IMG/VR virus record: IMGVR_UViG_2713896778_000023
Source: a virus
Lineage: Duplodnaviria > Heunggongvirae > Uroviricota > Caudoviricetes
Length of the DNA: 4,877 bases
Reading direction: 5' to 3' (one strand)
In this document: positions 3,001 to 4,877 of the stretch, piece by piece
Numbering within the stretch: the first letter of the stretch is position 1
How the letters are laid out: each line of letters starts with the position of its first letter
Made by a program: the position numbers

Positions 3001-4877
3001 TGATTCATGCCATTGAATACAGAACTGATAATGCTGTATCGATGTTTGGCGGACGACCAGCCAATCACATTAAAGTTATCAACGTTCGTGGGGACAGTAT
3101 GTGTCCAACCATTGAGCCAGGAGATCTCATCTTCGTTGATGTCAGTATCAATCAGTTTGATGGAGATGGTATCTATGTATTTGGTTTTGATGATAAAATT
3201 TATGTCAAACGACTACAAATGATACCTGACAAACTACTGGTGATTTCTGATAACCAGATTTACCGTGAATGGGGAATTACCAGCGAAAATGAACACCGGT
3301 TTATGGTCTTTGGAAAGGTCTTAATCAGCCAGTCACAAACCCTTAAGCGACACAATTAACCCTTACCTCCTCATCAATTAGCCACCCGAAGGTGGCTTTT
3401 CATTACCCATAAAATTGCACATCTCGCAATAAAAAGACTTGCATGATACGCAACTTCATTTTATCTTTCTTTCCAGACCAACAAACAAGGTACTAACAAA
3501 ATTTGGTTGTAACACGGCGTATGGCACATGTGTCGTTAGCGGTCTGGGGACGTTAAAGGGGACAATCCACTCCTTGCTCGGGCAAACAAACCAGGTAGCC
3601 GGAATGTGCAAGTCAATGATGATGCTGATAAGACGCCTAACCAGCGTGGCGATCCGGTTTGACGCCTGGGAAGAGACCAGGGTGCAACGATGAGGGCATT
3701 TATGGAGCCGCGACAAAGTGTGGTGCCGTAACTGGCTAAGTGCTCTCAGCGTTGTGGTAATCCGCGAAATGGCGCGGCGGTAAGTATGGCGGGGTTACTC
3801 TTTCCCCGTTGAGGACACCGGATTGTCAGGTTGACCATACGCCTGAGTGACAACCCCACCACAACAGCCACTGCTTTGGCGGTACCAGTTTGTACACTTT
3901 CTTCCGGCTGGTACCGCTCTTTTTACAAAACAGAGAAGAGCATCACCGGACGACGGGCTCATAACCCAATCCACCCGGGCGGATGCCACCGCAGGTGTTC
4001 TTCTCTGTTTTGTGGAGAAACCAACCGACCTTGCAGGGTCGATATGATGAGGAGCAGTGCAGGAAGAAATGGCTAACGAATTTCGTGATCTGCTTGTTGA
4101 GAAATTCAAAGACAGCAAAGTAGAAACCTTTATTGGTACTTTTACCGCCTGATTTCCTTACTGCAAATGCCCCTGCGGGGGCATTTATGGAAACATAATT
4201 GACTCAATAATCGCCTGATGGCGAGGGTTTTCTTTAACCAAAATTCTGCGCGGTGCAGCGCATATACGTGGAGAACAAAATGTCATTTATTAAAACTTTT
4301 TCCGGGAAGCATTTTTATTATGACAGGATAAATAAAGACGACATCGATATTAACGATATCGCGGTTTCCCTTTCAAATATCTGTCGCTTTGCCGGTCATC
4401 TTTCGCACTTCTACAGCGTCGCCCAACATGCGGTTCTTTGCAGCCAGCTGGTACCGCAGGAATTTGCTTTTGAAGCATTAATGCATGATGCAACAGAAGC
4501 GTATTGCCAGGACATCCCCGCTCCACTGAAACGCCTTCTTCCTGACTATAAACGGATGGAAGAAAAAATTGACGCCGTAATCCGTGAGAAATACGGGTTA
4601 CCCCCAGTTATGAGTACGCCCGTGAAATATGCCGATCTTATCATGCTGGCAACCGAACGCCGCGATCTCGGGCTTGATGATGGCTCTTTCTGGCCTGTAC
4701 TGGAAGGCATCCCGGCAACAGAGATGTTCAACGTGATTCCACTGGCACCTAGCCATGCCTACGGGATGTTTATGGAACGTTTTAACGAGTTATCGGAGTT
4801 ACACAAATGCGCATGAATGTTTTCGAAATGGAAGGGTTTCTTCGCGGGAAATGTGTACCGCGAGATCTGAAAGTGAA

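Follow-up and report, generated by a model that had tools for sequence, protein, structure and literature searches.

The window analysed here is a stretch of 4,877 nucleotides from the Caudoviricetes virus record IMGVR_UViG_2713896778_000023, and sequence comparison showed it to be identical to a lambdoid prophage in Escherichia coli O121 (NZ_CP028110.1). Between a cI-like XRE/S24 repressor gene (2667-3359, plus strand) and yfdR (4280-4816, plus strand) lies a block poor in open reading frames (ORFs), 3405-4279, which a preliminary description of the same DNA had taken as a single GC-rich, ORF-free unit of 0.9 kb. The composition was confirmed, with a GC content of 0.52-0.56 across 3500-4100 against 0.39-0.43 on each flank, and no credible protein gene was found in 3405-4056. 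However, the block is not one unit but two: a conserved noncoding leader at 3405-4057 and, at 4053-4279, a deletion scar with the end of yfdQ and the yfdQ-yfdR spacer. The first unit is the noncoding leader of a repressor-controlled early-left (PL-type) operon belonging to a widespread group of temperate phages of enterobacteria, and it probably represents a tRNA-operon-like noncoding array that carries a DicF-family small RNA (sRNA) as its 3′ trailer. Homology, folds supported by covariation, the strand of the RNA, the cassette architecture and the deletion were all directly observed.

Prevalence and conservation were measured by megablast against 5,426 complete E. coli genomes; modules were sought in phage genomes and by a scan of IMG/VR, with Rfam 15 as the family library. 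Positions 3360-4057 were kept at >95% identity in many prophages, and the counterparts, never annotated, always lay between a repressor gene (of the XRE type or the ymfK/LexA type) and yfdP. In phage genomes, similarity searches broke 3495-4057 into modules, each of which recurs in other phages without annotation and with its orientation kept. The whole block gave a thermodynamic z score of -4.3, on both strands, because of the terminator and module C described below.

A terminator scan placed a terminator-like hairpin (3380-3397, plus strand) 3′ of the repressor gene. It is followed on the same strand by a PL-like promoter with operators (3413-3467). The promoter is sigma-70-like, with a -35 hexamer TTGCAT (3439-3444), 17 nt and a -10 hexamer TATCTT (3462-3467). 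A pattern search gave exact matches to the operator-type palindrome TTGC-N7-GCAA at 3415-3429, at 3439-3453, at 2632-2646 in the cI-cro spacer and at 981; the first two copies together with that in the cI-cro spacer fit repressor operators. Of the promoter with repressor-type operators that had been proposed for this place, the palindromes are thus exact, whereas the promoter was legible by eye but failed a strict consensus scan. The depositors of phage Ayreon annotated a promoter at the equivalent place. In two Uetakeviruses (L009, ~1375-1415; L006, ~2860-2925), the array lies 3′ of a TTGACA promoter that overlaps the perfect palindrome TTACCTTTTAGGTAA, an overlap which suggests that the Uetakevirus noncoding array is repressor-controlled too.

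Structured RNAs of the array

Module A is a structured RNA at 3513-3701 (plus strand), defined by covariation and by a covariance model. Its helices, all on the plus strand, are P1 (3515-3523/3527-3535), P2 (3539-40 and 3543-47 with 3591-95 and 3598-99), P4 (3633-36/3644-47, loop CUAACCA) and P5 (3665-69/3677-81, loop GAAGAGA). The joining regions AGCGGUC, GGUAGCCGGAAUGUGCAAG and GGCGAU-CGGUGUGAC are near-invariant, the second of them being a 19-mer at 3594-3612. The scan of IMG/VR with this 19-mer returned 120 loci with 106 distinct variants, and 46 variants less than 93% identical were aligned to test the four helices. When copies were gathered via the P1-hairpin motif instead, the 19-mer showed single-base variants only. 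Across the 46 sequences, 95.2% of cells were paired, compared with 26-48% in slid controls; 12/25 pairs had changed on both sides (90 cells), and 0/500 shuffles reached these values. G:U pairs were frequent and would be A·C on the opposite strand; therefore, the RNA is the plus strand.

The covariance model of module A scored 140 bits for the window and 130 bits for phage P1, and it found no copy in Qin or HK022; a second copy, considered for the P1 ban leader or for Qin, was likewise dropped. Rfam gave nothing over modules A and B in the window, P1, Qin, phiV10, SPN9TCW or mEp390. The covariance-model search proposed in the preliminary description returned no match over 3405-4279 at E<=10, whether for ROOL, GOLLD or any other Rfam 15 family. 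Relation to RNase P RNA was considered on the basis of short motifs (GACCAGxGUGCAAC..GAGAGCA) and rejected, the local alignment with rnpB scoring 55 against 37.8 +/- 5.8 for shuffles (maximum 57); the Rfam RNase P models had no match in the block. GGA motifs occur in the invariant linker CCGGAAUGUG (3599-3608) and in the P5 loop CGGAAGAGA (3668-3676) of module A, and their spacing and context resemble those of CsrA binding sites, making them candidate sites from the sequence.

Module A was present in 1832/5426 complete E. coli genomes and was never annotated. In phages it was found in three settings. It lies 3′ of the repressor in lambdoids such as cdtI, mEp460, mEp390 and Stx2c phages; just 5′ of a tRNA-Arg(UCU) in epsilon15-like Uetakeviruses such as phiV10, TL-2011b, SPN1S, SPN9TCW and a Klebsiella phage; and, in P1, within the C1-controlled ban operon, where it follows the CCA end of tRNA-Ile by one nucleotide. 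In Enterobacter phage Tyrion, an int-alpA RNA (L010 2598-2662; 44 bits, above threshold) was found ~1 kb 3′ of a module A copy.

Downstream of module A, 3702-3750 (plus strand) holds a variable spacer hairpin, whose fold was not significant, and the conserved leader GUGCUCUCAGCGUU (3740-3753), which runs into module B. In 9 variants, the leader GTGCTCT-N4-CGTTGTGG preceded every slot RNA. Module B itself (3751-3865, plus strand) is a pseudoknotted RNA supported by covariation in an alignment of 24 sequences, including Citrobacter, Erwinia and Izhakiella. Its parts, again on the plus strand, are an acceptor-like closing stem GUUGUGG/CCACAAC (3751-57/3859-65; 95.5% paired, with compensations), H1 (3762-66/3773-77), a helix GUAUGG/CCAUAC (3784-89/3835-40) with only one covarying pair, H2 (3790-94/3804-08, loop UUACUCUUU) and a pseudoknot helix GGAUUGUCA/UGACAACCC (3820-28/3848-56), which crosses GUAUGG/CCAUAC. 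The pseudoknot helix, of the form GGRUUGYCA/UGRCAAYCC, showed five covarying pairs and reads GGGUAACCA/UGGUUACCC in Izhakiella. For the fold as a whole, 94.6% of cells were paired (slid controls 35-57%) and 10/32 pairs had changed on both sides (0/500 shuffles). The compensatory base changes in modules A and B bear out the earlier view of the block as a structured-RNA region. Module B was found in 4346/5426 genomes, in up to 8 copies per genome, and was never annotated.

When the sequence 3′ of module A was compared across all loci, one order recurred: module A, spacer hairpin(s), GTGCTCT-N4-CGTT, GTGG...X...CCAC(AAC), a trailer and a DicF-type hairpin terminator of the form TTGGCGG...CCGCC, T5, ACA. 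The slot X was filled by module B at 30 loci, by a genuine tRNA-Arg(UCU) at 24 and by a third RNA starting GTGGTGAATGCGCAGGCTGATGCGC at 17. Among the several rarer forms are tRNA-derived RNAs, one reaching 43.9 bits with the tRNA model (L101) and one retaining a D-arm (L088). Module B, tRNA-Arg(UCU) and the other slot RNAs have the same leader and the same 3′ CCAC in common, and module B retains the first four acceptor base pairs of tRNA-Arg, GUGG/CCAC. Two close relatives of this prophage (L034, L048) share its module A, its DicF-like terminator and its module C but have the third RNA in the slot between module A and the terminator; therefore, module B occupies a tRNA slot.

Exchange in this slot also bears on a rival reading, in which module A or module B would sense a ligand or a tRNA as a riboswitch or attenuator with the DicF-type terminator as expression platform. 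The pseudoknotted cores, invariant joining regions, variable peripheral helices and the intrinsic terminator that follows would suit such a device. It is nevertheless quite improbable, because a tRNA or an unrelated slot RNA can take the place of whatever adjoins the terminator. Moreover, the module A copies of P1 and of N-type lambdoids have no terminator close by, conserved alternative pairing of the antiterminator kind was not observed, and the linker or seed that separates module B from the terminator ranges in length from 9 to ~40 nt.

A decayed or overlooked protein gene was weighed as well, above all the minus-strand ORF 3798-4118. Searches of PHROGs matched this ORF to phrog_3651 (E 2e-51) and the plus-strand ORF 3847-4044 to phrog_33599 (E 6e-17), and several phage records annotate 'hypothetical proteins' here. 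However, the phrog_3651 ORF showed no coding signature: its differences from diverged homologues had no third-position bias (17/13/15 across codon positions), indels in homologues measured 1, 2 or 5 nt, L082 and L160 had a broken or shifted frame, and the N-terminus varied with the downstream neighbour gene. The ORF was rejected as a real gene on the codon-position and indel evidence. Pfam gave no match in any ORF of the block, and the helices stay paired through compensatory changes and G:U pairs on the plus strand. A protein gene, the finding that had been named as speaking against an RNA, is thus very hard to credit; most likely, phrog_3651 and phrog_33599 gather spurious ORF calls over conserved RNA.

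The DicF-family 3′ module and related operons

The array ends in the DicF-family 3′ module (3866-3925, plus strand), which consists of a 9-nt linker, UUUGGCGGUACCAGUUU, a hairpin (3879-3888/3908-3917) capped by the pyrimidine-rich loop CUUUCUUCC, and U5 at 3920-3924. The hairpin with its T5 lies exactly where previously described and folded at -21.5 kcal/mol (z -4.2 versus shuffles), and the module reads as a predicted intrinsic terminator. Positions 3735-3925 can be aligned both to the Qin dicF locus and to the annotated 'dicF-like region' in the ban leader of P1, and the 115 nt just 5′ of dicF in Qin are ~90% identical to module B. The comparison with DicF of Qin, made earlier under the heading of a prophage-encoded regulatory RNA, therefore reflects real homology and not analogy alone. 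A DicF-type hairpin terminator was always 3′ of module B, in 120 viral loci and in Escherichia, Shigella, Citrobacter, Erwinia and Izhakiella genomes, and the same DicF-type module closes arrays in many phages. In L251 (Erwinia tracheiphila, ~4640-4735), L252 (Izhakiella, ~2480-2576) and L174, a Shine-Dalgarno sequence, an ATG and a few codons (CACCAGGAGAGCGAAGATAATGTTCTACCGTGGTACC) lie within the DicF-type terminator hairpin and could form a mini-ORF or an attenuator variant.

DicF has been known since about 1990 and is a classic prophage sRNA. The dicBF operon of Qin has DicF in the same place as the array of the window, 3′ of the leftward promoter of the immunity repressor. Both share the core UUUGGCGGUAxCAGUUU, a hairpin with an anti-Shine-Dalgarno-like loop and a U-tract terminator. 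On the other hand, the hairpin arms and loop differ, and the 19-nt 5′ part of DicF with UUUCUGGUGA is missing from the window, as are ydfABC and dicB, whereas module A stands upstream in the window and not in Qin. K-12 DicF is made by Rho-independent termination and by RNase E and RNase III cuts, as related in a passage of PMC5069750 that cites Faubladier 1990. According to the same paper, the seed UUUCUGGUGA regulates xylR and pykA, and the region of DicF equivalent to the anti-Shine-Dalgarno-like loop pairs with the ftsZ ribosome-binding site (PMC5069750). The anti-Shine-Dalgarno-like motif YUCCYU was conserved in three loops of the array, those of the module A P2 insert, module B H2 and the terminator hairpin; by analogy with the ftsZ pairing of DicF, occlusion of host ribosome-binding sites would be its most likely activity.

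The ban leader of P1, in which a 'dicF-like region' is annotated together with tRNA-Asn, tRNA-Thr and tRNA-Ile, resembles the window in several respects: a repressor-controlled early operon carries a module-B-like element, a DicF-like hairpin and one module A, all on the same strand. The order is different, however, with module B and the DicF-like hairpin first and module A after tRNA-Ile, just before ban; and protein genes (tciABC) are interspersed, unlike in the window. Right after module A and 5′ of ban, the P1 sequence CCTGATTTTCTGGTGATGAC (L005 ~3196-3215) resembles the K-12 DicF 5′ seed UUUCUGGUGACG, and in P1 the DicF seed and the DicF-like hairpin may stand at separate places of the ban operon.

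Small RNAs cut from the spacers of tRNA operons exist, for example the 3′ external transcribed spacer (3′ETS) of leuZ in E. coli. In the Uetakeviruses, the DicF-type terminator is literally the 3′ trailer of tRNA-Arg, a layout that the window repeats, except that module B stands where the tRNA would be. In contrast to the leuZ 3′ETS, the window has no genuine tRNA.

RNA-based processive antitermination, as with HK022 put, had also been suggested for the block. Module A and/or B would act like put, or the GUGCUCU leader would serve as an rrn-type boxA recruiting Nus, so that polymerase passes the DicF-type terminator and escapes Rho. The put RNA binds the zinc-binding domain of the RNA polymerase beta′ subunit and suppresses terminators, and an untranslated RNA of >450 nt is a natural Rho target. 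The position fits: like put, the array is noncoding RNA, belongs to a lambdoid phage without N and stands where the PL transcript begins; it lies 5′ of at least one intrinsic terminator, and the window indeed has no N-like ORF, as had been stated. The leader is in part boxA-like, since the first 8 nt of its sister-array version GTGCTCTTTCCGTT are common to the boxA consensus TGCTCTTTAACAA.

However, the HK022 putL region has no sequence similarity to the block. The put element, ~70 nt long and made up of two stems, directly follows the start site (PMC9378689), whereas module A begins ~40 nt downstream of the start and is ~190 nt long with four or more helices. Identity with put was thus rejected on similarity, size and position. 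The boxA-like match that had been noted at the terminator U-tract (3915-3928) was dropped as well, for homologues read CCGCCCTTTTT or CCGACCTTTTT there; compared with a lambda-type nut site, only the leader GTGCTCT is conserved, and its boxA match is partial. Moreover, in the N-type lambdoids L036, L049 and L092, a hairpin and a canonical boxA GCTCTTTAACAA lie 3′ of module A; the module is no substitute for N in these phages, which argues against an N-independent antiterminator. Nor is module A bound to the promoter, given that it directly follows a tRNA in the ban operon and stands ~170 nt 5′ of the slot RNA in some other arrays, and the slot can house an ordinary tRNA. Position and a partial likeness of the leader are what remain of the suggestion, and cis-acting antitermination or anti-Rho action is unlikely.

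Module C, the yfdQ junction and neighbouring genes

Module C (3924-4021, plus strand) is a 20-21 bp stem (3925-3944/3994-4013) that closes two inner hairpins and is followed by GGAGAAAC. It folded at -45.3 kcal/mol with a z score of -6.4, and the long inverted repeat noted earlier is thus real. Compensatory changes were sought in the stem; it was kept in 15 variants, with G:U pairs on the plus strand and a few compensations. Module C precedes different first genes in different phages. The leader of lambda N contains an RNase III hairpin, and module C is like it in form and position, a long near-perfect stem just 5′ of the ribosome-binding site of the first early-left gene. By this likeness, module C is plausible as a 5′ untranslated region element of that gene or as an RNase III site.

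In the preliminary description, the block was thought to replace yfdP and yfdQ. In relatives, however, intact yfdP and yfdQ come after this same block. Both parental junctions are present in L002, and comparison with it placed a deletion junction with the microhomology AGCAG at 4053-4057, where ...GAGGAGCAG (just 5′ of the yfdP start) is joined to ...TGCAGGAAGAAATGGCTAAC (inside yfdQ). Lost in the deletion were yfdP and yfdQ codons 1-243. The two genes are deleted 3′ of the block, and therefore the block is not their replacement. The last 31 codons of yfdQ remain at 4057-4152 (plus strand), with a translation identical to the YfdQ C-terminus in L002; PGAP calls this remnant a pseudogene without N-terminus, and it matches phrog_210 and phrog_18285. 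Because the junction joins the region upstream of yfdP to the interior of yfdQ, the 27-codon ORF noted before yfdR (4069-4152) is explained as the last 27 YfdQ codons beginning at an internal Met; it is present, but it is the tail of yfdQ and no part of the leader. The yfdQ-yfdR spacer (4153-4279, plus strand) contains hairpins at 4165-4186, 4211-4224 and 4247-4262, the first of which is the GC hairpin previously seen 5′ of yfdR and is real by folding. This spacer was kept together with yfdQ-yfdR in thousands of genomes.

The integration site of the O121 prophage adjoins yjjG. Upstream of the repressor gene, the window carries a Rha-type gene (635-1768, minus strand), then ymfL and a cro-like gene. 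Within ORF 635-1768, which PGAP calls one 'Rha family' protein, matches to C4 antisense RNA (1235-1322, minus strand, 82.8 bits) and isrK (1347-1423, minus strand, 56.6 bits) were found; together they look like a c4/antirepressor module of the P1 ImmI type. The Rha domain proper begins at ~1180, and the annotated coding sequence 635-1768 may be over-extended. The same ORF contains 50 N (masked or unknown bases) at 1674-1723, where the matching genome record has sequence. Beyond the window, the same prophage (L001 10732-12863) has a gene for a CHAT-domain protein and one for a hypothetical protein between the early-left genes and the integrase, and this pair may be a defence-type moron.

Proposed mechanism and meaning

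In the following scheme, we infer where transcription starts, how efficiently it terminates, which enzymes process the RNA, Hfq binding, the targets and what modules A and B do. When the cI-like repressor leaves its two TTGC-N7-GCAA operators, transcription would start near 3474 and run in order through module A, the spacer, the leader GUGCUCU-N4-CGUU, module B and the DicF-type terminator. Part of the transcripts would stop at 3924, giving an RNA of ~450 nt, and the others would continue past module C into the early-left genes, in this window straight into the yfdQ remnant and yfdR. Operons of tRNA genes are punctuated by RNase P and RNase E. By analogy with these operons and with dicF of Qin, cleavage of the precursor by RNase P, RNase E and RNase III would release module A, module B and a short DicF-family sRNA. 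The sRNA would act as an Hfq-dependent trans regulator whose exposed loop CUUUCUUCC would pair with ribosome-binding sites of host mRNAs.

Several observations weigh against reading the leader as a tRNA-operon-like array with a DicF-family trailer. Modules A and B, taken alone, fold no better than shuffles (z +0.5 and z -1.1, respectively), so that their structure rests on covariation, and many of the aligned sequences come from related phages, making the covariation events fewer than the cell counts suggest. In module A, a pseudoknot between AACC (3639-42, in the P4 loop) and GGUU (3656-59) is possible from the sequence; its change from CACC/GGUG to AACC/GGUU in the clade of the window amounts to one apparent event in 3 sequences. 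Neither ARAGORN nor the Rfam tRNA model recognised module B, and they detected no genuine tRNA in the window. Where a tRNA would have its NCCA tail, module B forms 3 further base pairs with the leader, a possible obstacle to RNase P. The Rfam DicF model (RF00039) had no match in the window even at E<=10; with a gathering threshold of 48 bits, it gave sub-threshold scores of 24-28 bits for sister array ends and, in the same search, 76.7 bits for K-12 dicF. The K-12 DicF 5′ seed UUUCUGGUGA for xylR and pykA was absent from the window copy by alignment. In RNAduplex with ftsZ, the window copy scored no better than shuffles; the genuine K-12 DicF did not either, and hence this test has no discriminating power.

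A further step is proposed more tentatively. Undescribed classes of phage structured RNA may be represented by module A and by slot RNAs such as module B; together with the DicF-type trailer, they would form a mobile tRNA-operon-like noncoding cassette of lambdoid, P1-like and epsilon15-like phages. Module B might then stand in for a tRNA and bring in the tRNA-processing enzymes that free the sRNA, and the near-invariant single-stranded core of module A might bind a host factor or RNA early after induction. Full-text literature yielded nothing relevant for the invariant 19-mer or the module B core. In the literature on DicF combined with tRNA-like, RNase P or precursor, the upstream domain was not described, and Faubladier and Bouché 1994, on dicF-like prophage sequences, may hold prior observations. 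What is known is the DicF-type prophage sRNA locus; new here are two or three uncatalogued structured RNA families and a cassette architecture that was not found described.

These families are candidates for Rfam, their existence accounts for at least two PHROG families and for spurious calls of 'hypothetical proteins', and the locus reading is corrected to a deletion of yfdP and yfdQ. Only 53 nt of DicF are catalogued, yet it travels with a covariation-supported pseudoknotted domain and in many phages also with module A. If the proposal is true, DicF would be the mere tail of a larger RNA machine. The middle element can be exchanged for a real tRNA, and the findings together offer a concrete and testable model in which prophage sRNAs are made by tRNA-style punctuation.

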